Below are positions 3,871 through 64,000 of a stretch of DNA of 64,000 nucleotides, piece by piece. Numbering within the stretch: position 1 is the first letter of the stretch; the number at the start of each line of letters is the position of its first letter. The translations under genes and the position numbers were made by a program. Source of the DNA: Takakia lepidozioides (taxonomy: Eukaryota > Plantae > Bryophyta); contig CM060732.1 of assembly GCA_030704615.1 (NCBI GenBank), forward strand, positions 58,342,001 to 58,406,000, given 5' to 3'. The notes under the pieces were generated by a model that was given only the letters and a program-made list of their open reading frames with translations, ran no database searches and was not told the origin of the DNA.

Positions 3871-3944
3871 ACATAGTCAATCATCAACTAGCAGCTGACG
3901 TACCATCAATACATGGTTTCCCCCTCCACAAATCTATTATAAAC

Positions 3945-15310: not shown

Positions 15311-15744
15311 CATCAACGCATTACCTTCTCTCATGTACGTTGCTCATATGCTTCTTGAGGTTGTTTACCCATCGTGGGTCATTTGGTCGGTGCCCACTAT
15401 AATATGAACCAAGTTTTTTTTTGCCACAATGTATAAATTGAACGAATTCTCTCGTTTGCCCCCCTAATTACATATGCTGTGTTGTAGTCGGTGACAACTA
15501 CATGACCCGAAATCCGGTTGAGGTACCGTTTTACCCGCGATGGCATGTTGTGTTATAGTCGCTGTCGATTATAACACCCAAACTATAGCCACAGTTATAG
15601 GCGTTGTAACCCTTATTTTCGTTTACTTTTGCAAAAATCAAAATTGTCTCGTTTATGTATGGCAAAGTCGGTGCGCGGGGATGTCGGGTCCGTGGTTCGG
15701 TGTAGATTCGGGCAAGGTTTGGAATAGTCCGTTCATGCATTTTC

Positions 15745-20143: not shown

Positions 20144-20435
20144 CTAGTGCAACCACGAAATATGCAAAGGGGTACGACATTTCCTGCCATACAACAACTC
20201 AAAAGGGGAAAGCTTAGTACTAGCATGAATAGAAGTGTGATAAGCAAACAACAGAATTGGAACAGTCATGTCCCACTCGTCAATCAAAGTCTCATTCTTC
20301 TCTAACATCTGACACATGGACTTGTTAAAACGCCCCGTCAAGCCATTGCATTGGGGGTTATAAGGGGCAGTCACCGCATGATTAGTATTCAAGTTAAACA
20401 AGACAATATCCATGAGCTGGTTACAAAACTCTGTA
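20144..20435 (-). pseudogene. Ty3/Gypsy integrase core fragment from a different family
   Basis: TDPGTEFCN...TAPYNPQCNGLTGRFNKS...W...LFAYHTSIHASTKLSPFELLYGR. Confidence 0.85.
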
Positions 20436-23157: not shown

Positions 23158-23370
23158 GCGACACAGCCTATCACAGCCCAGCAAGGCGCGACACAGCCTA
23201 TCACAGCCCATCACGACGTGACACAGTATATCACAGCCCAGCACGGCGCAATACAGCCTATCACAACCTACCACAGCGTGTCACAGTCTATCACAGCTTA
23301 CCACAGTGCAACACAGCCTATCACAGCGTACCACAGTATGACACAACCTGTCACAGCTCAACACAGCCTA
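23158..23370 (+). repeat. 30-bp tandem repeat (10-bp CACAGCC sub-repeat) after integrase
   Basis: GCGACACAGCCTATCACAGCCCAGCAAGGC-type units encoding RDTAYHSPxR; also at 39235-39510 and 58063-58300. Confidence 0.9.
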
Positions 23371-23864
23371 TTAGCGTTACACAATCCATTGAATCAGTGA
23401 TAGGTGGACGCAGGATAACTTCAGGGAAATGGCCGGCGGAAGAAAGGACGGAAGCCAGTTTAGAAAATGACACGTGGAAGTCAGGGCGCAACACACAGCT
23501 GAGAAGGAAGTGCAAGAACAGGTGTCATCAAGAAAGAGGACAAGAATGGCCGTCAAAATACCTACTTAGCACGTCAATTCGGATGAATGGCGGGCCCATT
23601 AATGAATACGGAAAAAGGGCAACAGAACAAACGGCAAGTACAGAAAAGCGAAATTCTTGTCACATGTGTTATCATAGTGGACAGTCCAGCAGGGAAAGTC
23701 CACTAAAGACAATTAAATCTAAAATCCAGTCACAGCGGTTACAGCCAATCGAAAGCCAGAAAAGGGATCAAGAAATTGGAGGGAATTTAAGCGCAAGAGT
23801 CGGCGTCGTTCTAAGTAACGGGCGTCTCGACGGGACAAACCATCAATGCTATAGCTTTGAAGCT

Positions 23865-28010: not shown

Positions 28011-28354
28011 TCTTTTTGATTTTTTTAGGTTTTTGGCAGGGTTCATGTGCTTGATATGAGAATGCCCCGAGCACGGTTGGGATAAGGGTCACATCTTCCA
28101 AGTAAAAAAGTTGTAATGACAAGCAATGGGCTTTTGCAATGTGCTCCCCTCTGTTTTCAAATGGGTGCACATGAGTGGGGGGGGATGAAAGGACTTCACC
28201 AGTTGCACGAGACATTGGATCTGTCTACTACTTGGAACCCAATTTGTCAGTGACGTATTTTATTTTAAAGTCCAGCAATGTTTGTATGCTTGGGAGCTTT
28301 GATCCTTTGGCCGTCGCCTTTGCAGTAGTTGCTTTTGGTGTGCTCATGCATGTG

Positions 28355-29118
28355 GTCCCACGTGGGGACAGTTTTTGAGAAGATGGGGCCACGTATCGCG
28401 GGTCGCGTGGATGTGGGAACAGAGTGGGCACTACGGGGAAGGGAAGCTGGTGGGCTAGAAGGTGTGCTTGCGTCGATGACCCATGTATTGGGCATATCTG
28501 AATTTGAGGGTCTGTCGTAGTTGAGCATCAAATACGGCTTTAGTGTGCCAAAAAGGGTTGATAGTTTGTGGTGGAGTATAGTGGAATGGGTCCACTTTTG
28601 GATATATAGTTTGCTATGGCTAAGAGAGGCCGATGCTTGTTTATTAGCTTCTTTACTCAGACTAGAAAGAAGGTTCCGGATTGGCAGGGGTTCTGATGGG
28701 TCAGGTACCGGGTGTAGCAGCCAAAAGAGGTGTGTATGTGCGATGTGGATGGGGTCTGCCAAAGGTTCAACTGGGGGTTTGGAGGCCCCCAGTTGGGCAA
28801 GGAGGTCTGCCTCCTCGTTGCCGATGATGCTCGTGTGGGATCGAACTTTGAGAAAATGAATGGTTTTATTAATGGAGATAGCGAGTTTGATAATTGCAGA
28901 GATAAAGTTTCTATCAAGGTGATGGAGGTGGGAGGAAGGACAGACAAGGTGGTTACGGAGTATAAAGAGTGAGTTTAGGCTATCCGTGAAAATGTAGTAT
29001 GGTGGTGGGAACGAGGCTAATTATGAAATAATTTCATAAATAGCCATGAGTTCGGCCCGAAGTATGGTTGCAGGGCTTGGGAGTCGGTGGGCAGTCCCTG
29101 TGTTAGTGGCGGCATGGT
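28355..29118 (-). pseudogene. Non-LTR retrotransposon fragment: RNase H plus CCHC finger (RLE-type, Dualen/RandI-like)
   Basis: TILRAELMAIY..YIFTDSLNSL..FLKVRSHTSIIGNEEADLLAQLG, then QTLKFRYAQYMGHRRK..CPLC....DTWPHLL..C. Confidence 0.75.
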
Positions 29119-32799: not shown

Positions 32800-33295
32800 C
32801 GACAGTGCATCAAAAAACTGCGTATGCAAGTATGGTATTCTTAATATATGTATGCGTAATATATCTTCTTGTGCGTAGACAGATACGGTATTCCTAATAT
32901 ATGTATGTGTAACGTATCTTCTCTATGAAAAAATACGTATGGCTCAACATGTTTTAGCCACACACTTTTTAGAAATAGCGTTTAGTCCTAATGCCCAAGC
33001 AAGGGGCTAGAGTGTGTGGGCCATGTAGACAGCTTGTGCACGTGGCGAATAAGGGCGGTGACTTGTGTGTCACCGTGGCATTGAAGGCTCGCCGGCAGTG
33101 CAGCTAGCGGCCTGTCGGCACCGCCTCATCATGAATGTTGTTTAGTATTCGCCGCCACTACAGCTTGGCGGCAAATGCGATGCCCTCCTCTGCCATCCCA
33201 TGTGGGAATGAGACCCATACCCCTCTTAGGATGTTCAGAGCAAAAATGCATCAAAAATTTGTGTAGGCAGGTATGATATTCATAATATATGTATT
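32800..33295 (+). repeat. Satellite array (1 full plus 1 partial hairpin module)
   Basis: Same modules as 3945-6360. Confidence 0.9.
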
Positions 33296-33511
33296 GTAAG
33301 TAAAAAATAGAGGGTCTTATCGCCCATGCCACACATCCTATTAGTACTCTATTTATCCTAGACTGCAGCGGAAGAGAAAACCTGGCATAAACGGGAATCT
33401 TATTGCTTCTCTCAACATGTCATCTTCTTTCTTTGATTTATCATCCCTAGAGCATGAAGTTGTGCCCTTCATCTATGAGTCATTCACTTCCATATACATC
33501 CGACATCACTC

Positions 33512-39028: not shown

Positions 39029-42000
39029 GCCATGTTACAAACCATTAACAAAGAGATGCTGGGAAGAGTCAATATCAATAAGTTGAAGGGATACAGTGGT
39101 ATCCATGACAAACCATTGCAGCATGATTTGCATGTTGAAACGCAGAAGCAGTCACGGGCTGCGCCAGTGATACCAACGGAGTATGGAGCACTTGTCGTTA
39201 GGCCGAGCGTATATGACCAGGGCGGGCAGTACAAGCGCGACACGGCCTATCACAGCCCATCACAATGCGACACAGCCTATCACAGCCCATCACAGGGTGG
39301 CACAGCCTATCACAGCCCATCACGGCGCGACACAGCCTATCACAGCCCATCACAGTGTCACACAGCCTATCACAACCCATCACAGTGTGACACAGCCTAT
39401 CACAACCTACCACAACGTGTCACAGCCTATCACAACTTACCACAGTGCCACACAACCTATCACAGTGTACCACAGTATGACACAGCCTGTCACAGCTCAA
39501 CACAGCCTACTGGGGTTACACAGTCCATATGATCAGTGACAGGTGGACGTGAGTTAACATCCGAAGAATGGCCGGCGGAAAAGTGGACGGAGGCAGGTTT
39601 AGAAATGGACACATGGACGCCAGGGCGAGACACATAGTCGGACATGGATTCCAAGAGCGAGCGTCATCAAGAAAGAAGACAAAACTGGCCGTCAAAGTAC
39701 CTACCCGACACATTAACTTATTATGGGCCCATTAATGCATACAGGGAAAGGGTAACGGAACCCTTTAAAAGTACCGAAAAACGAAATCCATGTCACATGT
39801 GCTATCCTAGTGGACAGTCCAGAGTGGAAAATCCATGGAAGGGAATTAAATTACAAAACCAATCACACAGCCAACAGCCAATCATGAGCCAGAATTACCT
39901 GCAGAGGGTAATTTCCAATAAGCGAAATCAAGAAATTGGAGGGATTCTTAGCGCAAGAGTCGGCGTCGTTCCAAGTAACGGACGTCTCGTCAGGAGAGAC
40001 AATCAAAGCTATAACTCTGAAGCTATGGCGGAAATAACAGACTACATGCTCGCCTTACTACTTACACAGTGGCACAAGGACAGACGAACGGAGAGTACAT
40101 TTTCTCTAAATCGTTACTTGCAAGCCCCACAAGCACTTACCCATTTCATTCTGCGCCAACCATACTTTTATGCTTTGTGCCCTGCAGGCGTTTCTTCAGT
40201 TGTTGCAACCAAAACCTGTCTGTTTGTCCAGAATGAAGAGAGTGAGAGGAATGGAAGATATCAGGGTGAAAAGCACCACAATCTTATAGAAGCAAATGAT
40301 CGTTGCACCACAGGCGGTGCAGCTACTGAAGGAGCTGCGATTGGAGGGATTGCTATGCAAGGACTGGTCCTTGCATCATCGGCAGTTCATGATACAATTT
40401 CTTCAAAACTTTGAGCCTCGGACAGGAGTTACTCAGGTGAGGGGAGTAGATATAGAAATTACTCCCCGGTACCTGCAGCAACTGTTTGATTTGCCATCAG
40501 GACATGTGGAGGTGGATGAGCACAGGGCAAGATTCAAGATAGGGAATTTGTTCCAAGAAGGGAGTTTCTTTAAAACTCAAGGTTTTGCTTGTACCAAAGC
40601 CGAGTACCCAGGGCTTAGGGAGGTTGGGAAGGTGACCTTCTCTATGAAAATTCTGGCTTGGTAAGGGAAATAGTGATTCCAGAGGTGCAGCGATTGTCCA
40701 GGGGAAACCCTGCTGTGCATGTAATATCCACACCTGTGATGGAGGTACCAGGGGGAGAATATCAAGACACTACAACACCTGTGGTGGATGAGGTGATTCA
40801 GGAAGAAAATCTGGTAGGGCAATAGCCTGAATGGTTCATGAGGCATCACACTGTTGAGGATCAGGGAGAACAGCAGCAAACTACCATGATGACCCTCAGC
40901 AGGCCATGCTTATGAGTTCCATAAGTAAGACACTTAATTTGTTGGGCACTTATGTGAAATCCCATGTTCCATCTACCCAATTGACAACTTTGAGGGAGGA
41001 ACTCAGGAAGGAGTTTGAGGCTCGACTTGCCACTGAGTGTGCAAACAAGGTCGATGAGGAGGTCACTCTCAAGTTACAGCAAGAGTTAGAGGATACAACA
41101 GCTGCTTTGCAGTTGGCCAAGGAACATTTGATTGAAGCAAGCCTCGCGCAGGACCAGTTGCACGAAGCACATAAGCAACAGCTATACCAAATGCAGGTGA
41201 AACATGAGAGCAAGTTGCAAGAAGTGAATGCACTACATACGGAGTTGCAGACAGTACATGACAGGATGGCCATACAATGTGCTACACTCACAACTACGTT
41301 TGAGCAAACTACATTAGAAGTTAACAGCCAAGCGGAAAGATGTATAAAAGCACAGGCAGATAATGTCGAGCAGACAAAACTTATTGTTGATATGAAGAAT
41401 ACAATCTGTCGCAATGAGAATACTTTCAAGCAATACAGGCAGGTTGAAGTTGACCAAGAGAGGTACATCCTGGAATTGCAACAAACGGTCATGGCCAATA
41501 GAAATGAACTCTCTGTCGCTAACAAGGCTTGGAAGGAAGCCAATAATCTGGTTGCTGCCTATGCGAGTTTGGTTGAACCTCATGCAAAACGCATGGAGGC
41601 TTTACAGCAGCAGTTAGATATGTACAAACTCAGAGAGGAGCAGACTCTCAGGGGTGCCACTTGGTGGATAACCACCTTCTGCAAGTCTGGTTAGCACAAG
41701 GACCGGTGGAAGGCAAAGCACCATGGAAGCTCACCCAAGGCGAGATGAATGAGCTCAGACTGCAGGTGCAGAACATTGCCACAACTACTATAGACAATGT
41801 CTATAGTAGGATAGCAGAGCTACAGGAGGATGTAGACGACCTGCAGACTCAGGTGGAGGACCTGACATCAAATATTGACAAGAGAGTCTTTGTACCTGAG
41901 GAGAAGCTGATGGTTTCTTATTTACAAGCCAGAACTTTAGATTTTCAGTCTTCTTCGCAGGGGGTGCAGGAGATGTCAGTGGTACAAGAGCCAGTGCTAC

Positions 42001-44811: not shown

Positions 44812-45531
44812 GGACTACCAGCAAGCCTTCGTGCCCGCTTTGCTGCCCCGTCTCCCATCTGCCCGTTACGCGCCCTCTATGCCACGGTGGTGCACAAGTC
44901 ACCGCCCTCCTACGCCATATACACAAGCCCTCTACGGGACGCACACACCCTAGCCTCTTCCCTGGGCATTAGGGCTAAACGTTCTCTCTCAAAAGTGTGT
45001 GGCTAAAACAGGTTGAGCCATACGTACTTTTTTCAAAGAGAAAACACGTTACACATCCATATATTAGGAATATCGTACCTGCCTACGCACAAGAAGATAC
45101 GTTACACATACATATATTAGGAATACCATACATGCCTACCCAATTTTTTGATGCATTGTCGCTCTGAGCATCCTGCGAGGGGCAGGGGTCCCATTCCCAC
45201 ATAGGATGGCGGAGGGGGGCCTTGCAACTGCCACCAAGCTGCAGTGGTGGCGAATACCAAAGAACATTCATGATGAGGCGGTGCCGACAAACCGCTGGTT
45301 GCACTACCGGCAAGCCTTCGTGCTCGCTCTGCTGCCCCGCCTCCGTGCCCGTTGCGCGCCCTTTATATCACAATGGCGTACAAGTCACCAGCCACTTACG
45401 CCACGTGCACAAGCCCCCTGCGGGGCCCACACTTGCATGGGCACTAGGGCTAAGCGCTCCCTCTCAAAAGTGTGTGGCTAAAACAAGTTGAGCCATACGT
45501 ACTTTCTCAGAGAGAAGATACGTTACACATA
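44812..45531 (-). repeat. Satellite array, inverted
   Basis: Reverse complement of the modules at 3945-6360. Confidence 0.9.
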
Positions 45532-46512
45532 CTATAGGTCGAATGGAGATGATGAGGGAAACATGGAAGAACTCCAAGAGAGAGACAAGGAAATTAGGGC
45601 TTGACCCTCAAAGTGTGAAGAAACAGGAGATGAAATCGCGATTTTTTATTATGAGCAATGGGATGGATATTACAAATTTGATGACGACGGGCAGCATGGA
45701 TGACGAACAAGGATGAAATCAAGGGTTTTCATTAACCTGTGGATGACGGGTGGCGGGATGCCAAAGGGATGAAATATGCAGCAAAACGTTGATTTTTCAT
45801 TACCTAAGGATGAAGTTGTAGAAATAAGACAAACTGCTCAGCGGCGATTTAGTAAGTGGTGTGGCCATAATATAGTGCTAGGTGGCATCACTAAAAAGGG
45901 TGGACATAATGATGTACACGTCGCCCTATTGTTTATTTAGAAATGAACGGGCATGTGGCACAGATGGGATAATACCCAGTGGCCACAAATCTTTAAGCCT
46001 AAGAAGGTAGATTATTAATTTTTGGTTTCTAGTTACTAAATTAGCACGTGGTGTGACGGTGGAGGATAGGATCAGGCCTATGATCAGGCAGGTATAAGGC
46101 TAGCAGCTCGGGCAGAACTCTCAGCATTGTTGATACTAGTTGGGTGGTGAAGTAAAGCAGGGACGGGGCCCTGATTGCAAGCAAACATGAGCAGAATGTG
46201 AACATGTGAAGTAGAAATTTAGCAACTGATCTTGTGAAGTAGGCATCATGAACCGTTACAGAATGCACCTGGAAACGACATTTACAAAAAGTAGCAGGTT
46301 TGCAATCATGTAAAACGAAATAAAGCAAGTTTGTCAAGGACGATGGAGTCATAGCTATAAGATGAATTAACACAACATGTAGTGGAGCAATTCAACCAAG
46401 CATATAGCTGCACAGAGAAGTTGGAGAATGTCAAACCTTGAAGCACGTATGGTCATCTGAAGGTTGAACATAGGCTCTACTGACAGACCGCCATGCCAAT
46501 GGGAGAGTGATG

Positions 46513-49500
46513 CAGGGTTGCATACGTCAGTGACGTCACGTCGGACTTGACGTTGACGCGACCAACGTCACGTCAATTTTGTCGAAAAATCAGTAAAATA
46601 TTAGTTAGGTGAAAAATATGTCACGTAGGCGGACACGTTGTATTCCAAGCGACACCTTGGCAAGTGAATGAATTGTTTTATAAACTACTCCATCCGCCAA
46701 TATTTGAGGTCATTTTTAAATCATTATTGTTAAATTGGTGCGACCTCCAAATGGTGGTGGTCGCATAGTTTATCTTATTTGTTAATAGTTACGACCACCA
46801 GCAGAGGGGTTGTCGCAGCATTTTTTGTTTTTTAAAAATAGATGCGATCACCAACAGGGGTGGTCGCATTTTTTTCTTTTCTTAAATAGTTGCGACCACC
46901 GCTACTGGTGGTCGCACAATTTTTATTTTATTTGTAATAGGTGCGACCACCATCAGGGGGGTGGTCGCAACATTTTTCTATTTTTAATATCTGCGACCAC
47001 CAGCATGGGGGTGGTCGCAGCATTTTTCTATTTTTTTAATAGGTGCGACCACCAGCAAGGGGGTGGTCGCAGGATTGTTTTTTTTTTAATAGGTGCGACC
47101 ACCAGCAGGGGGTCGTCGCAGCAATTTTTTGTTTTTTAATATCTGCGACCACCAGCATGAGGGTGGTCGCAGCAGGGTTTTTTTTTTAATAACATGCAAC
47201 TTCCTCATGCGACCTGGAGTGGTCGCAACATTGGATTCTGATTCGTCAAGCGTGTGAGGCTTGGAGGCTGGAGGGTATATAAGGTGGTCCCAATGCCCCT
47301 CACTTCTTTTGTGGCAAACAGTTTTGTGGTGAGTGAATGTTCTCTATTCTTTGAGCAAGAGTGTAAGCCCAAGAGGAGGGTGTGGACCGTTTGCTGTTGT
47401 GGCTTCCACCAGAGCCACTGCAACAAATTGTCAAAAAGTAGAATACTACATGGTGCATTGATCCACTTGGATTGATGCCGTAGTGTTGGGCCATCGCATT
47501 CTGTTCTAACTTCTATTGATCTTGACAAATCTACTAAGTACACTAGTGTTCTTCGTTCAATCTTAAGTCTGTGTTTAGGGTTTTGGGTGTGAGGATGAGG
47601 GAGGAGTGGATCCTTTGGTTCACCGTAGACCCGCACAAAAAGGACGGTGTTCAATGTAATATATGTGCATTGAAGTTGGCGGGTCGCAAAGATCGCATGG
47701 TATATCACCTCGGCTATAGAGATGGGAAGAATGCAGGGGTTAGTTTGTGCCCAAAAGCCTCCATGCGAGTGAAAGCCCACTTGCCCAATGTGGAGGCAAT
47801 ATCCCACCGTCTCTTGATGTGGCCGTGGCTTCTGAGTCAAACACTCCAGGTTCGAATCAAAATGTCCCTCAGAGTTGTACCCAGGGGGATTCTTGCGAGG
47901 CGTCTGTTGTTTGTGGATAAGCCGGTGGGTCAGGAGCAACACCCGATTGTACGTCAGCACTTGTACGAACCAGACCATTGAGGCAACAATCAATGCAAGA
48001 AGGCTTAAATTTGTAGCACAGGAGGACTCTGGATAGGAAGTGGACCCAATTTTTCTACGAGGCCAATATTCCATTCAATGTCTCAAGGCTTCATGCATAT
48101 GTGGCTGCTGTCAAAGCCACGTCCGATTCCAAGTCCACATACACACCTCCGAGTTATCGCAATTTCCTCACATGATTACTAGAGTTTTGTTACTAATCGA
48201 CCACTGTTCAATGTCATGCTGGTCTGTCCTGCGGGGGAACAATTTTTGGGATCCGTTGACACAAACGGGGGGAGGAAATATGCACGTTATCAAGCAGGGT
48301 TGTTGACGAGTTTCATCAATAAAATTGGAGCTGATAAAATTGTCCAAGTGTGCATGGACAATGCATCTAACATGGTTAATATGGTTGATATTTTGATGGT
48401 ACGATATCCCCATCTATATTACTAAGGGTGTGCTGCTCATATTTTTTATCTCCTTTTGGAGGATTGGGGAAAAGAATCATGGATAAAATAACTAGTAAAA
48501 AGGGCAAAGTCGGTTATGACATTCATTCATACACATCACATCCCTCTGGCATTGTTTAGAAAGATGAACCCAAATACAGCCTTAGGAACCCGAGTGAAAC
48601 CCGCTTTGCCACAAACTTTTTGATGGTGGATCGACTGGAGACTGTGAGGGCGGGTCTGGAGTAGGTAATCATTGATCCTCAATAGAATGCGTATGTGGGA
48701 ACCTTACGCGACTCTCGTAAGTTCAAGTCTTTGAGCAAAAGTCAGAGGGTCCACGCAATCATTCGCTCCGATTTCTGGGCGAAATGTGCAAATTTTGTGT
48801 ACATGGTGGAGCCGATGTTGATTGCTTTGCAGGAATTTGATGCAAAACAACCAATAATGGGTAAAGCATGGTTGATATTGGAAAACCTTGAGAAGCACGT
48901 GCAATCCTTGAGGCGTCCTCCATTTTCCATGGACGATGATTTGGTGGCAAGGACCGAAGATGCATTTTACAACCGCAAACGGATGGTTCGCACGAACTTG
49001 CATTATGCGGGGGCCTTGCTGAATCCATTCTTGCTGGACAATACGGATTTGAGAGACGATGCGGATGCCAAAGCTGGGCTTGTATGGGTCATCATGTAAC
49101 TTGCGCCCTTGAACATGGCAGAGCGAGCTTTGTCCGAGTACCAGTGCTTCTCGGATCGCCAGAATCCTTTCCATGATATGTCGGATCCAAAAGCAATGAA
49201 CATGTTGCCACATGAATGGTGGGATCTAATTGGAGCTGGAGCAAGAACATTAGTTCCCATTGCAAAGCGTATTATTGCTCAAGTGTGCTCTGCCTCGTCC
49301 TGTGAGCGGAACTGGAGCAGTTATTCATTTGTTCACAACAAGATTCGCAATAGATTGAATCTCGCCAGGGCTAACAAATTGGTTTATGTCTACACGAATT
49401 GTAGGCTACTACAAGAGAAGACAGCAAGTGATGCATCTGCATGGTACGAGAAGAACCTGTTGTCTGAAGAATCTGCCTCAGAGGTCCAATCTAGCAGCAA

Positions 49501-49579
49501 TGATGACACCGACGTCGCGAGGGACTCCAACTCCAACGGTTGGGATGGGTCCGATGATGTGGGCAATCCTCTACATGAC
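46513..49579 (+). mobile_element. hAT DNA transposon (left end, subterminal array, transposase), cut by a Gypsy insertion
   Basis: CAGGGTTGCA terminus; 10 palindromic subterminal units at 46738-47230; transposase downstream; right end not seen. Confidence 0.85.
47594..49579 (+). pseudogene. hAT transposase pseudogene (BED-like finger, DUF659, hATC dimerisation domain)
   Basis: VQCNIC...RMVYHL; VQVCMDNASNM; CAAH; ETRFATNF; WWDLIG...CSASSCERNWSSYSFVHNKIRNRL...LVYVYTN. Confidence 0.92.
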
Positions 49580-50514
49580 TGTTAGAGGACTGTCGGGGAC
49601 TTAGACACTTATACGGGATTTGTAGGGTACCCTTCATTTTTGCACAGACTGAGACCAACAGAGCCTTAGCAGCGCACTGTAGAGGGGGGTTACACAGCCC
49701 GTCACGTCACAACAGACACAGCCCGTCACAGTCGTCACAGCAAACACAGCCGACACAGCCAACATAGCCCGTCACAGTCGTCACAGCCGACACAGCCATC
49801 ACAGCCGACACAGCCACACAGCCAAACACAGTCGCACAGCCCGTCACAGCCCGTCACAGTTTCACACACCAGTCACAGCTTGACACAGCTGTCACGATCA
49901 TAGGGAACGAGAGCAGGACAGGGAACGACTGTGGGGAACAACACCTGCGAAGGGAACATGTTAGTTCACAGACGACGGTTAGTGAGGGAAACGGTTAGAA
50001 CCACGGGTAGGAAGATAAAGGGAGAAGCGGGGAATTTGGGGATATCATTCGGAGGAGGACTTCTTGGTCATGGAGGAGAGGGATCGGGCAGAGATGAGAA
50101 CGGAAGCGAAGATAGAGAGATGATGAGTAGATGCTTGATATATGCAAGGCTGTAATGATATTGTAGAGCAGATTAGAGACACAATGGCTTCGGCCTGATA
50201 CCTGATAAATCATAAACGGATACTTTTTACGATACAATCACACTGTGTAGAGAGATCTGAGTGAAGCTGTGGAATGAATGGATGAGTTGATGGAATCCAA
50301 TAGATTGATAAAGCAAACTGATACTTAATTATCAATGGTAAGATAGCTAACATGAATGCCAAAAGGGAAACAAATAGGAAACACCCCCATGATACACTAG
50401 CTGTAGGTCATGACTGATTGTTCTGGCGCGGTGAGTACTTAGAGATTTCCAACTCTTCTATCTGGAGTTTCCGCCTCGAATAGCGAAGGATGGGTGAGTA
50501 AAAGCCGTGCGACA
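49580..50514 (+). repeat. 5' LTR of family A
   Basis: TG...CA termini; homologous to the other two LTRs; followed by a PBS. Confidence 0.92.
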
Positions 50515-53433: not shown

Positions 53434-54294
53434 TGTTAGAGGACTGTAGGGGACTTAGACACTTATACGGGATCTGTAGGGTACCCTTAATTTTTGCACA
53501 GACTGAGACCAACAGGAGCCTAGGGGTGACAGCAGCGCACTGTAGAGGGGGGTTACAGCTCACAGTCGTCAGCTCACAGTCGTCACAGCCCACTTCATCA
53601 CAGTAGTCGCACAGCCAGTCACAGCCCGTCACAGTTTCACACAGCCAGTCACAGCTTGACACAGCTATCACGATCATAGGGAACGAAGAGTAGGACAGGA
53701 ACGACTGTGGGAACAACACCTGCGAAGGGAACATGTTAGTTCACAGACGACGGTTAGTGAGGAAACGGTTAGAACTGCGGATAGGAGATAAAGGGAAAAA
53801 CGGGGAATTGAGGGGATCATTATTCGGAGGAGGACTTCTTAGTCAGGCTGGAGCGGAGATCGGAAGCAAAAGATGGAGAGCACGGTGAAGGAGGAAAGAG
53901 GATTAGTAGATGCTTGTTATATGCAAAGCGGTAGTGATATTGTAGAGCAGATTAGAGACATAATGGCTTCGGTCTGATACCTGATAAATCATAATCTGAT
54001 ACTTACACGATACAATCACACTGTGTAGAGAGATCTGAGTGAAGCTGTGGATTGAATGGATGAGTGAAGGAAACTGATAGATTGATGAAGCAAACTAATA
54101 CTTAATTATCAATGGTAAGGTAGCTAAGATGAATGCGAAAAGGGAAACAAATAGGAAACACCCCCATGATACACTAGCTGTAGGTCATGACTGATTGTTC
54201 TGCGCGGGCTGAGTACTTAGAGATTTCCAACTCTTCTATCTTGGAGTTTCCGCCTCGGATAGCAAAGGGATGGGTGAGTAAAAGCCGCGCGACA
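53434..54294 (+). mobile_element. Solo LTR of family A inserted into family A gag-pol
   Basis: TSD GTAAT at 53429-53433 and 54295-54299; flanks rejoin as ETLAEVI|CQTKAEITIGQLL. Confidence 0.93.
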
Positions 54295-57200
54295 GTAATA
54301 TGCCAGACCAAAGCAGAAATTACCATTGGACAGCTATTAGCTGTGGCACCTTATTGTAGGCACAGGCTGTATCAAGCAATCAATCGAATTGCCCAGGAGA
54401 CAGGAAACACAGACCTGAACAGCAAGGTGACCAGTTATAATGTGAAGCCGGAAGGGCGAGAAACAGTCATGGACTTTGATGATTCTATGCCAGTAATCCA
54501 ATTGAGAATTGGAAGCACAGAACTAACTGATGTACTGATAGATGGAGGTTCTGGAGTAAATATCATGACAGACCAATTCAGGAAGAAGCTGGTCTAAGTA
54601 CATGAACCAGCCCCATTACAGTAATAATGGCAGATCAAAGAAGTGTACAGCCATTGGGATTAATAAGAGGAGTTAAGATACAGATACAGAAGATGATCTT
54701 TATGATCACAGTAACTGTGTTGAAACTGGATGAAGTCATGGAGGCTTACTCCTTATTATTGGGACGGCCTTGGCTGAAACAGGCCAGGGTATTCCATGAC
54801 TGGAATTCTCAGTTACTAACCGTGCATAATGGGATACACGAGATACAAATTACACAAAGAAATCTAGTAGATTACCTGCTACAAGAAGACCTCGAGGAGT
54901 CAGAGAGTATGACTGGAAAGGAGGACTGGATGAGGAGCAGGAAGCTACCCTATTTGCTGCACACCCAGAGTGGGAGCAGGTTGCAGAGATGCGGCTGGAA
55001 AGCCTAAGTTGTTTGAGAGGTATCTGCTGTGGTGTAGTGACAGCAACACCAACTGAAGAGGAAACCAGCATTTACCCATCACATTTCTATGAAGAAGAGA
55101 AGAAGAAATAGAAATCCTAGAAGAAACCAGCCACTGTGAGCTTACAGGATGAAGTGGTGACTGGTTGGACAATCACAGCTGATGAGCAGGTGAGGGAAGT
55201 AAATGTGGGAACTAAAGAGGAACCGAGGATGGTGGAAGTAGAGCTGATTTGGAGCCGGAATTCTTCGAAGAGCTAAAAGCTTGTTCATCAAATACAGAGA
55301 TGTATTTGCTTGGAGCTATGAGGATCTAAAGGGGATACCACCTGAAGTCTGTCAGCATAAGATTGAACTGGAACCAGGGTCAGTACCAATCAAGCAGGCG
55401 AGGTATAGAATGAATCCCAACTACGCACAGAAGGTTGGAGAAGAGATAAAGAAGTTGGCTGAGGCTAAGTTTATATACCCAATAGAGTATACAACTTGGT
55501 TGTCACCCATTGTTATAGTTCCCAAGAAGAATGGCAAACTAAGAGTATGTGTGAACTATAAGAAGCTGAATGCTTGTACGAAGAAAGATCCTTTCCCTTT
55601 GCCATTCACAGAAGCAGTATTAGACACTGTGCAGGCCATGAGACTCATTCATGGATGGCTTCAGTGGTTATAATCAAGTGCAAGTGGCAGAAGAAGACCA
55701 AGGGAAAACAGCTTTCATCACAGACTGGGGGGCTTATGCATACAAAGTCATGCCCTTTGGACTTTGTAATGCACCAGCGACCTTTCAGAGAGTGATAAGT
55801 GAATCTTTTCATGAGTATCTGGATGATTTCATGCAGGTATTCTTGGATGATTTCAGTGTGTACAGCTCTAAGAATGAGCACTTGCATAAATTGGAGTTAT
55901 GTTTGGCCAGATGCAGGATGAGAGGTCAGGGACTGAATCCAGAGAAATGTACTTTCTGTGTGAACTTAGGGGTGCTTCTGGGACACATTGTGTGTAAGAA
56001 GGGACTCATTGTGGATCCCAGAAAGACAGAGTCCATTAAAGCCTCTCCACCACCAGTGAATGTTAAAAGTCTACGAAGATTCCTTGGGCAAACCAGTTAT
56101 TACAGGAGATTTGTCAAAAGGTATGCACAAATAGCAGCACCATTGAGCAAACTACTGAAGAAAGATGCAGTGTTTGCCTGGACAGCTGAATGTCAACAGG
56201 CGTTTTGAGGAACTTACACTGTCAGTAACAACTACACCTCTGCTGATTAACCCTCACTGGCATGTAGTATTTCATGTTCACTGCGATGCATTCAGGAGAA
56301 GCGTTGGAGCGGTGTTAGCCCAGAATGTTACAGGAAATATAGATTCACCTGTGTACTATGCTAGCCGGTTGATGAACAGTGCTGAAAGGAACTATAGCAC
56401 AACGGAAATAGAAGCATTGGCAATGATCTATGCAGTGAAGAAATTCAGGCACCTGTTGGGCAAAAGTTTATGTTCTATGTGGATCACCAGGCTCTGATAT
56501 GGGTAACAAACCTCTGATAAGCGGAAGAATGCAAGATGGTTGATATCTTGCACGAGTTTTGAGTTCGAGGTTGTTTACAAGCCTGGGAGCTGCATCTTGT
56601 GGCATCATTTGTCACGGTTATCAACAGGAGAACCAGCCACAGAATAGATGACAATTACCAGATTGCGAGTCTCTTTGCAGTGGAGGTGCAGGGAAGTGCA
56701 GATGACTGGTTAGATTGGCAGTGGCCAATCAGATACTACCTTGCTCATTGGTCAGTGCCCACTAGTTATGGTAAGGAGCAGAGGAAGAGAATCGCTATCA
56801 AAGCTTTACCTTATACTATGGTAGGAAGATTAAGCTAGGACCAGATGGAGTACTAAAACGATGCTTGTACCACCATGAAGTAAATAAAGTTTTGGAGGAA
56901 GTTCATAAAGGAGTGGCTGGAGGTCATTTTGGAGAAGAGACTACCAGTAGGAAGATACTACTCGCAGGTTATTGGTGGCCTACTTTGTTCAAGATGTACA
57001 CGAGTATTGTCAGAGTTGTGATGAACGTCAGAGGGCTAGGACCTTTGCAGAGATCTGGAAGGATGGCCTTGCATCCTACAATGCCTACGGAACCATTTCA
57101 AAAATGGGGACTAGACTTTGTTGGACCGATAAATCCAGCCAAGAATACACGGAACAGGTACATAATACAGCCACTGATTATACTACGAAGGGTGGAAGCT

Positions 57201-60098
57201 AAAGCTTTGAGGGACAACACAGCCAAGTCCACAGCAAGGTTTCCTGTACGAGAACATACTTACAACGATTTGGCTGTCCTTAGAATCTATCAGTGATCAG
57301 GGAAGTCACTTTCATGAATGAGACCATTGAGTGTTGACTAAAGAGTTCATGATTGTACATAGAAAGAGTACAACAATTACCACAGAGGGTAACAGGCAAA
57401 GGCTACCAACAAATACTATGTACTATCTTGGCTAAGATAGTCAATGCAAACAGAACTGATTGGGATACAAAGCTGCTGACAGCTTTGTGGTCATACATGA
57501 CTTCCTATAAAAGTCACCACTAAGTATACACCATTCCAATTAGTTTATGGTATGGAAGCCTTATTTCCAGTGGAATTCCTGTTACCTACCATGTGGGGAA
57601 AAAGAATTGGATTGCCATTTCATTAAGGTCAGGAAACATGAATTATACCATGTGGAAGAAGTACGTGCTGATGCAGCTGATAATATGACCAGAATTCAGA
57701 TGAAGAGGAAGGAACAGTTTGATGAAGACAAGTTAAAAACCTTTAAGACGGGAGATTTGGTTCTATGGTTGCAGAAAAAGGGAAAGATTAAAGCTTCTAA
57801 GCTTAAATCACCATGGAAAGGACCTTATGTCATACAAAAGATGTATGATAACAACACCCATGTTACAAACCATTAATAAAGAAATGCTGGGAAGAGTCAA
57901 TGCCAATAAGTTGAAGGGGTATAGTGGTATCCATGACAAACCATTGCAGCATGATTTGCATGTTGAAACGCAAGAGCAGTCACGGACTGCACCGGGGTTA
58001 CAAACGGAGTATGGAGCACTTGTCGCTAGGCCAAGCACATATGATCAGGGCGGGCAAAACAAGCGTGACACAGCCTATCACAGCCCATCAAGGCGAACCA
58101 CAGCCTATAACAGCCAAAACAAGCGTGACACAGCCTATCACAGCCCAGCACGGCGCGACACAACCTATCACAACCTACCACAGCGTGTCACAGCCTATCA
58201 CAGCTTACCACAACATATCACAGCCTATCACAGCTTACCACAGTGCACACCCATCACAGTGTACCCCAGACACAGCCTCTCACAGCTCAACACAGCCTAC
58301 TAGGGTTACACGATCCATAGAATCAGTGACAGGGTGGACGCATAATAACTTCAGGAAAATGGCTGACGGAAGAAAAAACGGAAACTAGTTTAAAAATAGA
58401 CACGTGGAGGTCAGGGCGCGACACACAGCTGAGAAGGAAGTGCAAGACCAGGTGTCATAAGAAAGAGGACAAGAACGGCCGTCAAAAGGGATGAAAGGCG
58501 GGCCCATTAATGAATACGGGAAAAGGGAAACGGAACGAACGGCAAGTACAGAAAAGCGAAATTCTTGTCACATGTGTGATCCTAGTGGACTATCCAGCAG
58601 GGAAAGTCCACTAACAAAGAAAATAAAATCTAAAATCCAGTCACAGCGGATACAGCCAATAGAAAACCAGAGAAAGGATCAAGAAAATGGAAGGAAATTG
58701 AGCGCAAGAGGCGGCGTCGTTTCTGAGTAACGGGCGTCTCGACGGGACAGACCATCAATGCTATAGCTTGGAAACTATGGAGGAACTAAGAGATTATACG
58801 CTCGCAAATTATACGGCAGCATAGACACGAAAGAACAGAGCGGAGCTTTTCTCTTGAGCGATGCTTGCAAGCCCCGCAAGCTTACAAGAAATTACCCATA
58901 GCTTTCTGTGGCAACCATACGTTTATGCTTTGTGTATTACAGGCATTTCTGCAGTTGTTACAGCCAAAACAGTTCTGTGAGTCTAAAATGAAGAGAGTGA
59001 GAGGAATGGAGGAAATCAGGGTGAAGAGCACCACAATTCTGCAGAAACAAACGATTGCTACCCCATAGGCGATACAGATACTGGAGGAGCTGAGATTGCA
59101 AGGATTGCAAAGCCTAGATTGGACATTACACCATAGACAGTACATGTTACAATTTTTGCAGAACTTTGAGCCAAGGACAGGAACAACAACGGTGAAGGGA
59201 GTTTTGAATTAATGATTACTCCCCTATACCTCCAGCAATTGTTTCGATTGCCAGCAGGTCAGGTGCATGTGGAGGAACACAGGGCAAGACTGCAAATAGG
59301 GGGACTTATTCCAAGAAGGGAGTTTCTTTAAAACTCAGGGTTATGCTTGTACCAAGGCTGTGTACCCAGGGCTAAAAGAGGTAGGCCAGGTATTGAACGT
59401 TCTGATTGCCATGAAACAGAACCAACAGTATTTGAGCAGATCCTTCACGGAGGAAATACTCAAAGGCCTGAAGGGACAAGAGGTACAATGGGCGGACATA
59501 ATGTACAACGCACTGGTGGAAGAGATGAAGAGATTACAAGGTACTACCGCAAAGTCTCCTATCATAGTGTCTGGCCCAATCATTGCTCAAATAATTCTTG
59601 ATTCTGGCATACTTGATGCGCAAGAAAGAAAGGAGATGTGAGTGTTTGAGCCAGAAACCACTGCAATGGGAAGAGCAAGGATCTTCACACAGTGAGGGTG
59701 GACTAGCAGGGCAACCCGAGACTAAGAGGCAGAGACGGGGAAAGATGTAGTGGCGGATCCACTGGCTTCACGGATTCCGCATGATAATGTTTCCCAAGCT
59801 CATGTGCAGGAAGGGGCACAGCAGCACAGAGAAATGCTATTACTGGAAGCAGGACCTTCAGAGAGGGAGGAGGAAGTTACTTCAGCATCACAACCATCAC
59901 AGCCAGCTGATCGACTTGTCACAAGGTCACAAGTTGTCCATGCAGCTCAACCAGAAATAATTGATTTGGAAAGAGAAGGGTTAGATATTCCAACTACAGA
60001 ACAGATAGTGGCAGAAATGGAGAAGGGGGACCTTCTCTATGAATATTCTGGTCTGGTCAAGGAGACAGAGATTCCAGAGGTGCAACAGTTGCCCAGGG

Positions 60099-60391
60099 TG
60101 GGTCAACCACGAGCAGCATTACCTACACTGCTCAGCTTTCCAGGATCTCATGCTTTCCGGGATAGTGGACCTGACCTCCTATGGGATGCTCAGTTGCAGC
60201 AGTTAGTGAAGCCTAATGCTGACGAGCGAGAGCGGGCTATGGGGTTTTTCACTGGGATCACGGCGACGCCTTCTCTTTCTGAGGCATCACGTCGTCAGGT
60301 GTTGGGGCAAGCAATGGATCTCAATTGCTTGACCTGGATTATCAGCTTGGCTATGGCTGAGCAACGTAGAGTGCGAAGTGCACTTCCTTGA
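60099..60391 (+). pseudogene. C5 cytosine DNA methyltransferase C-terminal part (target-recognition region, motifs IX-X), DNMT3/DRM-like
   Basis: LPTL...ERERAMGFFTGITATPSLSEASRRQVLGQAMD aligns with DNMT3A RTI...[32 protein letters not shown]. Confidence 0.8.
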
Positions 60392-60829
60392 CGGTCTCTC
60401 TGCCTACCGAGACAGTACAGGCAGCGAGTGGGGGCGAGTCGGTGAGGACCACGGGGTGTAGACATCCATGCTCGAGGTTCAGAGGGAGTTGGCAGCCAAG
60501 GCAGCTGTGATATTGGGGATTCTTCTCGGGTTGAGGAGGTCCTCAATGATGAGATGATGGGGCATGATGAGGTCTTTTCATTGACTGAGCAGGCAGGGAG
60601 TATTGCTCAAGAGGTTGCAGCATAGCAACCACGGGATGCGTCCTCTTCCTCTAAGTCTGCTGGACTTAAGGTTGCAGTTACGGAGGACAATTGGGAGCCT
60701 GATATTGGACCCATTGTCACCGGAGGAGAGAGACGACGTATACGGCGGTTCTTGAGGGCTTACAAGAATTGCTTTGCCTTCAATTTGAAGGACTTATGAG
60801 CACTGAAGGGTCAAGAGATTCGCATTGAA

Positions 60830-63175
60830 TTGGCTACTGACACGCCAATCTTTTGGAGACCCTATAGATACAGTGACATGGAGAGATCCTTGATTCAGAT
60901 GACTTTGGGGTGGTTTGGAGCTATCTGGGGAGAGTATGCTTCAGCCACAGTGATGCCAGCCAAGAAGGATGTCTATGGCAATTGGACGGAGAGACGTATG
61001 TGCGGTGATTACCGGCCTGTAAATCGTCAGACCAAGTCCGATAGGTATGCCATGCCGACACCAGAGGAGATCTTTGATGCCATTGGGCATGCCAAGGTCT
61101 TTAACACTTTGGATTTACGATCCGGATATCACCAGGCGCCCATCTTGAGACGACCTATCAGGGGGCGTCCTTTTCAGCTGCATACGGATTGGAGCATGCT
61201 GGGGCTTGGAGCGGTGCTCACACAGGTGGATGATGAGGGAAAAGAGTTCGTAGTGGCTTATGCTAGCCGCTCAAACAACGCTGCAGAGTCTAAGTATAGC
61301 TCATATGAGGGAGAATGCTTAGCTGCAGTGTGGGCTGTGGCACACTTCAGATGCTATCTATACGGCAATCTCTTCACCCTTGTCACGGATCACCAACCAC
61401 TCAAGTGGTTGATGGAGTCAAACAAGCTTACGGGGAAGCTTGCACGGTGGGCACTCATACTCCAGGAGTATGACTTTCAGGTTGTGCATCGACCGGGTTT
61501 GGTCAATCGGGATGCGGATGGATTGAGTCGCAATCCATGCACGAGCCAGCAAGATGACACTGGAGCTCGGTGGCATGGTGAGACGGACGAGGAGATGGTG
61601 CCGGGATGGCACGCATCTGCATTTTTGTGTATCTTGGCATCGGGAGGTCAGGTTGGACCTACAACAGGGATGACTATGGACGGAGTGTCTGAGGACCCTG
61701 AGGCTAGTGATGAGCCAGGTGGTGCCAAAGATATATATGAGGATTTGGCTGTGTTGGGCTACCTCCGCACGGGAGACACGACAGCCACTGTGACTGCCAG
61801 GGAGAGGGATCGGATCCTGCAACGAGCGAAGAGGTTCAAGTGGGAGGGGATACACCTACTTCGAGTGTGGGAGGATGGTTGGGTGAGGATTGTGCCTCAC
61901 CCCACACAGCGTGCACGGTTAGTGCGGCATGCCCATGAGGAGTTGGGGCATTTTGGAGTGCGACGCACTTACAGTTTACTGCAGGGGCAGTATTGGTGCC
62001 GTGGTATGCATACAGAGGTGCAACAATTCGTGGCTAGGTGCATGGTGTGTGACAGGGTGCGTGCTTCATTCAACGCCCCTACACCACAGTTGCATCCTTT
62101 ACCAATCATGGGATTGGGCTACAGGTGGAGTCTTGACTTCGCAGGACCGTTGCCACTAACTATGCGCCACCACAGATATGTGTTGGTGATGGTGGAGCAC
62201 TTCTCCAAGTGGATTGAGTTGGTTCCATTGCCTGACAAGGCTAGTGAGGGGGCTGGGTATGCATTCTTGGATCGTGTGCTTAGCCGATTTGGTGCTCCAG
62301 CTGAGGTACTCACGGACCAAGGGAGAGAGTTCTTGGGGGAGTTTGAGGCTTTGTGTGATAAAGCCTTGATAGACCACCGCACCACTTCTCGGGATCATCC
62401 TGAGGCCGATGGCTTGGCAGAGAGAGTTGTTCAGACGGTGAAAGAGGGTTTGCGCAAGTATGGCTTGCAGAAGGGACATCTAGGAGATTGGGATCTTCAA
62501 GTTCCTTGGTTAGCCATGGGCTACAGGTTCAGCAAACAAACATCACTTGCCTCCTTCTCACCATATTTCCCTCTCTTTGGCCGAGAGCCGGATTTGCCTG
62601 CAGCCATTTGTAGGGACACTGCTCAAGTCCTTAACCTTGACGATCCGGACGTGTGGGTACGTGCATGTGATCAGCGTGCAGAGTTGTTCAAGAAAGTCAT
62701 GCCCATGGCTTTTGAGAACCTTGCCATTGCACAACACCGTGATACGTTGAGGTATGCCACTATACGTGGTGGAGGATATCGTCCTGGGGTTCGGAGGTTT
62801 AGCCCTGGTGACTATGTTTATTTGCAGCAGACTGCTCCTACGACTCTGGATGTTACTGCAGGGCGTGTTATTCTGAGGGTTCAAGAGGTGTTGTCCTCAG
62901 GAGTCCTGATCTTGGAGGGTCGGGATGGCATGACTTGGAAGGATCATGTGCGTAATCGTGCGCCATGTCACCTTCCCAATGTCGATGGCAGAGTTGACCC
63001 AAACTTGGCAGTGGTACCTGCAGGTTTGAGGTGCATGCTCTGTGGGTCTGCCAAAGGGGTAGCCACCATGCTGGTGTGTGATCGATGCTCAAGAGGTTGG
63101 CATATGGGATGCTTGATACCACCTCTTGAGAGGGTTCCTGATGGAGATTGGTTATGTCCACACTGCTTAGGATAG
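60830..63175 (+). CDS. Gypsy pol: partial RT, RNase H, intact integrase, C-terminal PHD finger
   Basis: CGDYRPVN, LDLRSGYHQ; HTDWS, YEGECLA, TDHQPL, ADGLSR; HHCC, LDFAGP, TDQG, AER; C4HC3 PHD at 63032-63166. Confidence 0.9.
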   Translation: MATDTPIFWRPYRYSDMERSLIQMTLGWFGAIWGEYASATVMPAKKDVYGNWTERRMCGDYRPVNRQTKSDRYAMPTPEEIFDAIGHAKVFNTLDLRSGYHQAPILRRPIRGRPFQLHTDWSMLGLGAVLTQVDDEGKEFVVAYASRSNNAAESKYSSYEGECLAAVWAVAHFRCYLYGNLFTLVTDHQPLKWLMESNKLTGKLARWALILQEYDFQVVHRPGLVNRDADGLSRNPCTSQQDDTGARWHGETDEEMVPGWHASAFLCILASGGQVGPTTGMTMDGVSEDPEASDEPGGAKDIYEDLAVLGYLRTGDTTATVTARERDRILQRAKRFKWEGIHLLRVWEDGWVRIVPHPTQRARLVRHAHEELGHFGVRRTYSLLQGQYWCRGMHTEVQQFVARCMVCDRVRASFNAPTPQLHPLPIMGLGYRWSLDFAGPLPLTMRHHRYVLVMVEHFSKWIELVPLPDKASEGAGYAFLDRVLSRFGAPAEVLTDQGREFLGEFEALCDKALIDHRTTSRDHPEADGLAERVVQTVKEGLRKYGLQKGHLGDWDLQVPWLAMGYRFSKQTSLASFSPYFPLFGREPDLPAAICRDTAQVLNLDDPDVWVRACDQRAELFKKVMPMAFENLAIAQHRDTLRYATIRGGGYRPGVRRFSPGDYVYLQQTAPTTLDVTAGRVILRVQEVLSSGVLILEGRDGMTWKDHVRNRAPCHLPNVDGRVDPNLAVVPAGLRCMLCGSAKGVATMLVCDRCSRGWHMGCLIPPLERVPDGDWLCPHCLG

Positions 63176-63434
63176 TGGCAGTGGACATGACTAGAGGCAG
63201 CTAACAAGACATGGGGGCCAAGCTCAGAGGAGTCAATACACGAGATCCCAGGCTCAAGTTCACAGGTTGCACGACGGCGACTAACGATGGGGCAACTCTT
63301 GCACCCGGCCTCTTGATCTATTGAGTTTGAGTGTAGTAGGGACAGAGGTGGAGGACTTAGTGAGGCTATGGTCACTATCACACCTTGTGGCTACCTGGAC
63401 TTAGAGGGACCTAAGCACCAGCTAGGGGGGCGAT

Positions 63435-63622
63435 TGTGTGGACTAGTGACTGCCATAGTGGGCAGCATAGTGGCAGCCTAGTGACTGACTAGTTGTGGCC
63501 TAGTGGTTGGACTAGTGGCTGGACTAGTGGTGGACTAGTGATATACTAGTGTGTGGCGTACATTTGTGTTGTGTGGTTTTGGACAACGATGTAGTTGTGT
63601 AGCGATATGTATGCGCACGACA
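63435..63622 (+). repeat. Probable 3' LTR of family B with GACTAGTG repeats
   Basis: Starts TG after the PPT; candidate end ...GCACGACA; no second LTR to confirm the end. Confidence 0.5.
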
Positions 63623-64000
63623 TCTTGTTAAGGTTGAGGAGTCACTGGGTCTTTCGTCGGAGTGCCCAGATAGCGACTGCATGCTCCCTTTTCAACAACA
63701 AAAGACCCATTTGTACCAGCAGGCCCAGCTCGCCCCACATCACAAAGACCTTCCCATGCAGGTCATGCATTTGTGGAAGGACTCACCTCAGATTGGAGGT
63801 GAATACCAAACATCTTTCATCCATAGCCATTTTCTAGTGTCATGCTCTTACAAACACAATGGCTGCTTACTGGGGCGATTGCACTGCGCAGCACCTTCAC
63901 CTTACTCTCAATGAGGCTAGACGTAGAGATGGAAGAGGAGAACCACCAAATGGAGCTGCAGAGAACCAGGAAGCAAGTGGAAGGAGCAGGGTTGCCCACA

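Follow-up and report, generated by a model that had tools for sequence, protein, structure and literature searches.

A dead DNMT3-carrying Gypsy retrotransposon copy in Takakia lepidozioides and the conserved stop codon of its moss and liverwort relatives

Why retrotransposons keep a silencing enzyme of their hosts has been an open question since 2018, studied only in dinoflagellates and one alga. The closest described system is KnitGypsy-Dnmt3 of Klebsormidium nitens (PMC5890265). According to the accessible text it has the Gypsy order of pol domains, a non-permuted Dnmt3-type domain ahead of the reverse transcriptase (RT), DIRS-like split repeats (Fig. 4c legend) and a record of purifying selection. 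A second related group are PHD-bearing Gypsy elements of Chlamydomonas (Gypsy-7a_cRei, REM1), in which a PHD finger follows the integrase (INT); the accessible part of that paper does not mention a DNMT for them (PMC9940879). Here we analyze 64,000 nt of Takakia lepidozioides (GCA_030704615.1, contig CM060732.1, positions 58,342,001 to 58,406,000, forward strand), the whole of which is called the window. At 60099-63622 it contains a Gypsy retrotransposon of the DNMT3-carrying kind, in a copy that is dead and has suffered deletions; relatives of it are named from mosses and liverworts.

Judged by sequence comparison, the lineage of the window element is a land-plant branch of KnitGypsy-Dnmt3, with the same split repeats. 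It is a variant and not the same family because a conserved stop separates DNMT from RT. The DNMT of KnitGypsy-Dnmt3 is placed in the Pol open reading frame (ORF) (PMC5890265), whereas the bryophyte DNMT ends ORF1 ahead of UAG-CARYYA. Correspondingly, in the Klebsormidium protein P0016 a DNMT at 304-569 is followed by RT with no stop; its pol is 52% identical to that of the window. KnitGypsy-Dnmt3 is reported from Klebsormidium only, the window lineage occurs in land plants, and the accessible main text mentions neither PHD nor readthrough nor chlorophyte (PMC5890265). Thus, the additions over prior knowledge are the land-plant range and the conserved readthrough-type stop. For neither a DNMT-Gypsy element in land plants nor a CARYYA stop in such an element was a description found in the literature searched, the accessible parts of which also comprised PMC12344493, bioRxiv 10.1101/2021.11.30.470311, PMC8557442, PMC11982613 and PMC6453930; subscription papers and theses were mostly outside this scope, and supplementary trees may include bryophyte copies. 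A recent preprint mentions 'streptophytes (Gypsy-DNMT3)' in its accessible text (bioRxiv 10.64898/2026.05.21.726589).

A reading made from the letters of the window alone, here called the sequence-only reading, had claimed motifs IX and X of a cytosine-5 (C5) methyltransferase at 60099-60388. The residues are indeed present: in the window frame, 60098-60388 translates to ..LPTLLSF..ADERERAMGFF..T..S..SRRQVLGQAMDL, including PTL, ExERAMGF and LGQAMD. A family DNMT profile of 73 sequences, from which the window and its nearest protein, P0395, had both been left out, matches 60099-60388 with 137.6 bits (E 1.8e-43), the sole match under E 1 in the six frames of the window. Intact DNMT-bearing pols (P0002, P0004, P0005, P0008, P0016) align across 60098-61144 in tblastn, and PF00145 is present in long homologues of the window pol which align through the fragment into RT. 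The fragment is 92% identical to P0395, which extends further upstream as far as motif VIII, 79% to Calypogeia P0333 and 75% to Sphagnum P0445. The proposed recognition by PF00145 failed on the fragment itself: Pfam returned no match for the 97 aa alone, and phmmer against the PDB gave chance matches only. The identity is settled by homology to relatives, i.e., by profile and tblastn, and not by Pfam or PDB matches of the fragment. This confirms that a C5 methyltransferase of the DNMT3 type has left its C-terminus, with motifs IX/X, at 60099-60388.

The intact relatives display what the window copy has lost. We fetched 77 metagenome loci by pol alignment, drawn from the best 80 of 382 confirmed stretches. 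An RT start preceded by 1350 nt or more of sequence is present in 53 loci; of these, 51 have the DNMT upstream of RT, between protease (PR) and RT, and in 50 it covers motifs IV-VI. These 53 loci are non-independent, as most belong to one family grouping with Sphagnum proteins and several are the same insertion. A lineage without DNMT was considered and rejected, since the two exceptions (L048/L049) are one insertion with an internal deletion. Thus, the linkage of the methyltransferase segment to this pol, as the sequence-only reading had it, recurs in other copies, and the expected upstream catalytic motifs I, IV (PCQ), VI (ENV) and VIII (RxR) lie between protease and RT in full-length relatives. 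L003 is intact: an ORF1 of 1369 aa (Gag-like region, Asp_protease_2, DNA_methylase) ends at TAG CAG TTA and is followed by an ORF2 of 1047 aa with RT, RNase H (RH), INT and PHD. P0452 and P0453 are further whole ORF1 products. The Gypsy order PR-(DNMT)-RT-RH-INT is found in L003, and the downstream domains of the window copy fit it. Pfam places a PHD finger and no chromodomain after the integrase, and membership in the chromoviruses was rejected.

The ends of these elements are split direct repeats of the form A...PPT-B-A-B (PPT, polypurine tract). They resemble those of DIRS elements and are seen in L006, L007, L010, L018, L076 and others; often they are shortened to PPT-B, as in the window copy. 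Target duplications are 4 bp long, five of seven exact and two with one mismatch (TCTC, AACA/AATA, CATA, TGTT, ATTA, TGTG, ATTA/ACTA). Phygy of Physcomitrium (REXdb) is likewise a bryophyte Gypsy outside the chromoviruses, yet it prefers NCGN targets (PMC6317226). With 0/7 duplications of the NCGN type here, Phygy membership was rejected; the words 'methyltransferase' and 'phd' do not occur in the accessible text of that paper (PMC6317226). In L018 (11258-11826) and L007 (11263-11804) an internal B-A junction, ..GACA GC TGTC.., resembles one formed by two ends joined together, and short inverted repeats make up the termini.

All six motifs of the enzyme (I, IV PC, VI ENV, VIII RxR, IX and X) are aligned in unpermuted order in L001, L002, L003, L004 and L016. 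Regular expressions recovered motif I in 28, IV in 25, VI in 23, VIII in 20, IX in 26 and X in 26 of the 34 loci with a full-length DNMT match, and in the alignment of the 73 DNMT sequences G-W-P-C-Q and ENV belong to the columns that hardly vary. Searched against the PDB, the family profile finds DNMT3A (E 5e-23), then DRM (1e-9) and HhaI (2e-7). An AlphaFold model (pLDDT 92.6) has DNMT3A as its best fold match (E 8e-20, TM 0.69/0.84). Profile and fold searches both rank DNMT3A/B/C first, and a DNMT3 fold is predicted. The likeness to mammalian DNMT3A/3B extends to motif order and predicted fold of the catalytic domain at an identity of 21-23%; the element enzyme differs in having no PWWP or ADD, and a PHD of the putative unmethylated-H3 reader type is located on the integrase instead. 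The DNMT family is broad, with 619 representatives at E up to 1e-30, and the first match in a protein atlas is a mostly streptophyte DNA-methylase cluster. The ratio of nonsynonymous to synonymous substitution (dN/dS), measurable in 8 of 10 pairs, is about 0.13-0.26 in seven pairs between families; two more pairs are saturated. The DNMT has thus been under purifying selection between families, and catalytic activity is likely.

A stop codon separates DNMT from RT in this lineage. In the window it is an amber codon at 60623, in-frame, followed by CAA CCA (60623-60631), and it is a conserved feature and not a mark of decay. In a survey of 66 rows (65 loci and the window), 58 have a stop in frame no more than 200 nt from where RT starts; the remaining ones are copies with frameshifts or interruptions, or members of a second lineage which has no stop. 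After the stop, CAR follows in 46 of the 58 rows, CAACCC in 39 and the exact CARYYA in 6. Counted with one copy per family, exact UAG-CARYYA occurs in five of seven families, the window included, and the other two are one letter off. By comparison, the CARYYA context follows only 1 of 683 premature stops in pol. The second codon after the stop is CCA, CTA, TTA or TCA (Pro, Leu, Leu, Ser), i.e., all four YYA codons are used, and the 30-nt flanks of the stop mostly match at only 5-19 of 30 positions between families. Four codons within barely similar flanks point to selection on the nucleotides. In named proteins, P0445 of Sphagnum jensenii terminates at the same conserved stop, and P0333 and P0381 of Calypogeia terminate at the same distance, 94 aa past motif X. 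L001/L017, L003 and L047 have no Met ahead of the conserved start of RT; their first one is at or past it (codon 117 in L003), and for this reason no whole RT can arise there from AUG initiation.

CARYYA is the readthrough signal of tobacco mosaic virus and of further viruses of plants according to the accessible parts of PMC4132726 and PMC2194720. The same sources describe the SIRE1 pol/env junction and gag/pol suppression in murine leukemia virus, with which our elements share an in-frame amber stop with CAR-YYA between two ORFs. The difference is that here the stop splits gag-PR-DNMT from RT-RH-INT-PHD in a plant Gypsy element, and readthrough is a prediction. Given the conserved UAG-CARYYA stop, ORF1 is gag-PR-DNMT, and with high probability pol is made by readthrough, which would put the DNMT at Gag level. 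This bears on the plain DNMT-RT-RH-INT-PHD order of the sequence-only reading. A Gypsy element with a DNMT3-type enzyme and a PHD-tipped integrase stands; a single polyprotein does not, because the conserved stop intervenes in the lineage of the window. The asserted common frame of 59750 and 60830 with four intervening stops is correct: 59750, 60098 and 60830 share a frame, with stops at 60389, 60443, 60623 and 60797.

A possible long-range stem starts about 10 nt past the stop (window 60626-60745, with matching sites in L001, L003, L004, L008, L011 and L047). Single folds have z scores of -0.6 to -2.5 in 7/7 families, and cognate arms pair better than swapped arms (4/5040 permutations, families non-independent). 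RNAalifold did not recover the stem, and in a fixed register there was no covariation beyond shuffles. As these alignment tests did not support it, the stem is a lead only.

The lineage has named members in several assemblies. Relatives of the window pol are found in Calypogeia (75%), Riccia (76%) and Coleochaete (69%), and at 40-52% in Klebsormidium, Closterium and chlorophytes. The best 120 DNMT relatives name Calypogeia fissa, Sphagnum troendelagicum, S. tenellum, S. jensenii, Marchantia polymorpha, Riccia sorocarpa and Closterium; no vascular plant is named among these 120, which is no proof of absence. In Riccia, DNMT (R1sor_014310) and pol (R1sor_014311) bear consecutive tags, and gene models of Marchantia and Riccia join DNMT to RT or to INT-PHD. 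The Marchantia gene model Mp_7g09570 (P0439) consists of protease, DNMT, integrase and PHD remnants of a DNMT3-carrying Gypsy. A warning comes with this lineage: in assemblies of bryophytes and green algae, many gene models called 'DNA methyltransferase' are parts of retrotransposons. Trees, which the sequence-only reading had suggested building with charophyte elements, agree for pol (RH-INT) and DNMT. Both place the window in a bryophyte group with an SH-aLRT of 99, with Coleochaete next in the pol tree, although they are quick searches without bootstrap. The trees fit vertical descent and are also compatible with transfer. Together these comparisons support the presence of a DNMT-Gypsy lineage in land plants, i.e., in mosses and liverworts.

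The position of the DNMT in pol varies across green plants. Among 120 long pol homologues it lies between RNase H and integrase in 98, which are mostly unnamed and, where named, chlorophyte; in 13 it precedes RT, 5 have none, and in 4 its position is unassigned. At least once, the domain has changed its place in the polyprotein. The chlorophyte matches of the window pol carry the same DNMT family and differ in this placement; the PHD-Gypsy pols P0001, P0017, P0103, P0111, P0032 and P0009 all have it between RNase H and integrase. P0032 of C. reinhardtii, the DNMT of which is degenerate, is not equated with Gypsy-7a.

The PHD finger of the window element may give a clue to targeting. Its best 60 solved matches are PHD fingers of CHD4, KDM5, PHF21A, AIRE, BAZ2, UHRF1 and similar proteins, the nearest being CHD4, KDM5B and KDM5A. 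PHD fingers of the CHD4, KDM5, PHF21A, AIRE and UHRF1 type read unmethylated H3 tails. Because the nearest solved fingers are such readers, insertion may be biased away from H3K4me3 promoters, and we lean slightly to the view that the PHD binds tails unmethylated at H3K4 and steers integration away from active promoters. In the accessible text on the PHD-bearing Chlamydomonas Gypsy-7a, intergenic insertion is 2.6 times the expectation (PMC9940879), an excess which could also be explained by selection.

Domain order, DNMT-pol linkage, catalytic motifs, the conserved stop with its context, and split repeats with 4-bp duplications are properties of these elements as observed. For their joint function we propose, with somewhat better than even confidence, that intact relatives of the dead window copy pack DNMT at Gag level via a leaky UAG-CARYYA, methylate their cDNA and then insert it by the PHD-bearing integrase. 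Terminating ribosomes would produce Gag-PR-DNMT, and a minority would read through and add RT-RH-INT-PHD. As most ribosomes would terminate after Gag-PR-DNMT, the particle should hold much DNMT beside the new cDNA. There the enzyme would methylate the cDNA of the element prior to integration, a process proposed for DIRS elements by de Mendoza et al. in the accessible Discussion (PMC5890265). The integrase with its PHD, a predicted reader of histone H3 tails, would then insert the methylated cDNA. The likely gain is that new copies arrive methylated, resembling host DNA or damping their own expression. That cDNA in the particle is the main substrate we hold by a narrow measure to be the probable case. 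More tentatively, an ancient green-plant Gypsy could have kept an active DNMT3 since before the split of chlorophytes and streptophytes, down to present-day mosses and liverworts; its land-plant branch would have a leaky stop of the tobamovirus type, Gag-level DNMT, methylation of every copy and PHD-guided insertion into chromatin unmethylated at H3K4. Such an element would be a mobile system for de novo methylation complete in itself, and it may seed heterochromatin in the genomes of bryophytes. The conserved leaky stop predicts a Gag-level enzyme inside the particle, and the stop-less sister lineage offers a natural comparison. Since the genetic model Marchantia polymorpha has remnants of the lineage and Sphagnum-type sequence has many copies of it, substrate, dose and targeting are testable in land plants.

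A number of observations weigh against this proposal. The largest family sampled has TAG/TAA CAA CCC ATG (39/58 rows), which departs from the signal by one letter and brings an AUG as third codon; early Met codons are also present in L004 and L008. Although Coleochaete P0122 nests within the clade that bears the stop, the 65 residues ahead of its RT start contain none. The second lineage (L066-L077), which groups with Calypogeia P0186/P0193, has DNMT fused to RT with no stop; it occurs in the same contigs with the same split-repeat ends, and L046 holds ends of both families. This lineage and the stop-less algal relatives imply that Gag-level DNMT is not needed in all elements. The DNMT is stop-free in only 6 of the 34 full-length matches, one of which (L018) has no catalytic Cys, and dN/dS is about 1 in the single within-family pair, from the Sphagnum-type family. 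Motifs I-VI were not observed in the family to which the window copy belongs, as P0395 reaches only motif VIII. Finally, the domain persists in Chlamydomonas P0032 and Pleodorina P0009 although PC and ENV are gone, a hint of a non-catalytic role.

Four other explanations were weighed. An active Gag-level enzyme may have chromosomal DNA as its main target: released by the protease, it would move into the nucleus, where copies already integrated, rival elements or the flanks of insertions would be methylated, so that it would serve to limit copy number or as a weapon against competitors. Gag-level synthesis yields far more enzyme than one cDNA requires, a brake to the benefit of the host was raised by de Mendoza et al. 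(PMC5890265, accessible Discussion), and DNMT3 does de novo methylation in bryophytes (PMC10952607, accessible text). This reading is nevertheless unlikely: within ORF1 the DNMT has no reader domain, the PHD being on the integrase, and every lineage has retained the DNMT within the polyprotein of the particle, either before RT or between RH and INT. Less probable again is a mainly non-catalytic domain which binds or shields DNA in the particle or pre-integration complex, with catalysis dispensable. Structural proteins are typically produced at Gag level, and the degenerate yet retained domains of P0032 and P0009 fit such a role. In yeast the KnitGypsy-Dnmt3 domain yielded no methylation, which also counts against our proposal, yet the authors call the result inconclusive as DNMT3B failed too (PMC5890265, accessible text). 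The near invariance of G-W-P-C-Q and ENV in the 73 sequences, kept across saturated synonymous divergence, argues against dispensable catalysis.

The DNMT might also act on cDNA while pol arises by a route other than readthrough: a separate transcript, a spliced one, or reinitiation at an AUG just past the stop. Three families with an AUG at codon 3, 4 or 14, and TAA in 17 of the 58 rows, suggest this, and a similar gag/pol stop of Candida Tca2 is not read through (PMC2194720, accessible text), a precedent which speaks against our proposal as well. But the TAA rows are decayed copies, CARYYA is conserved at the nucleotide level with four different second codons, and L001/L017, L003 and L047 have no usable AUG; we consider this route improbable, at about one chance in ten. 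As for a chance capture or a piece of a host gene at one locus, or algal contamination behind the land-plant matches, one may point to the fragment without a Pfam match, to the chimeric locus at 60098 and to the mostly metagenomic loci. DNMT and pol are, however, linked in 51/53 loci, the named matches from Calypogeia, Riccia, Sphagnum and Marchantia are on contigs of megabase size, and the trees of pol and DNMT are in agreement. This explanation is refuted by the counts of linked loci together with the named assemblies, and its residual probability is minute.

All features of the window copy are on the forward strand. The DNMT remnant (60099-60388) comprises the end of the target-recognition region with motifs IX and X and closes ORF1 as far as it is preserved. 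The linker up to the stop (60389-60622) has two copy-specific in-frame stops and is internally out of frame relative to P0395, with indels against other copies. The predicted readthrough site is followed by the N-terminal part of RT (60632-61144; 71% identical to L001 residues 5-173), with a copy-specific stop at 60797. Near 61135-61145 RT is without some 170-190 codons, YxDD included; one contig has 566 extra nt there. The pol ORF (60800-63175, 791 aa) contains domains found by Pfam: RNase H (61166-61471, RT_RNaseH E 2.8e-36), the zinc-binding HHCC and core regions of the integrase (61901-62401, Integrase_H2C2 E 3.2e-15, rve E 4.1e-12) and, at the integrase C-terminus, the PHD finger (63032-63166, E 1.9e-9), with the ORF stop at 63173-63175. 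A polypurine tract (63424-63430) has the context CAGCTAGGGGGG, common to many relatives. Terminal repeat B of the split direct repeats (63434-63622) ends with ..CACGACA, a short PPT-B end which has no second A-B pair. The 3' end is exactly 63622, where 68 contigs of run X1 have loose ends and beyond which depth collapses.

At the front, the sequence-only reading had motifs I-VIII lost by 5' truncation. The loss is real; an ordinary truncation it is not, as the element abuts another retrotransposon. An unrelated Gypsy of family A (53434-60098, 89.8% identical over 4814 nt to window 20435-25191) is cut off at 60098, and 59750-60098 is 90% identical to this other family elsewhere in the window (20435-25191). 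Three family A copies are in the window, and those at 25191 and 40703 run on into different sequence past the junction base; contigs of runs X1, X3, X5 and X13 have other sequence upstream of 60094-60097. Because the DNA up to 60098 belongs to a family whose other copies continue differently, the front of the element was lost at the junction 60098/60099, probably by deletion. Records of run X1 matching 59000-64000 amount to 47,540 with many variants, which is consistent with a multi-copy family although the number is not a copy number. Rfam gave no match for 59000-64000, and the viral contigs searched contained no relative of the window element.

Elsewhere in the window the family A copies are at 20435-26455, 39029-41961 and 53434-60098. 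This family has a long extra ORF 3' of the integrase (24306-25544, 25483-26094), apparently coiled-coil and of no clear family, with atlas matches under 0.9. A dispersed family of tandem repeats of about 480 nt occurs in both orientations (3933-6354, 15733-16513, 32800-33360, 44821-45536). Remnants named by eye are hAT-like (48686-49585), SWIM-like (10070-10534) and LINE RNase H-like (28265-29020).

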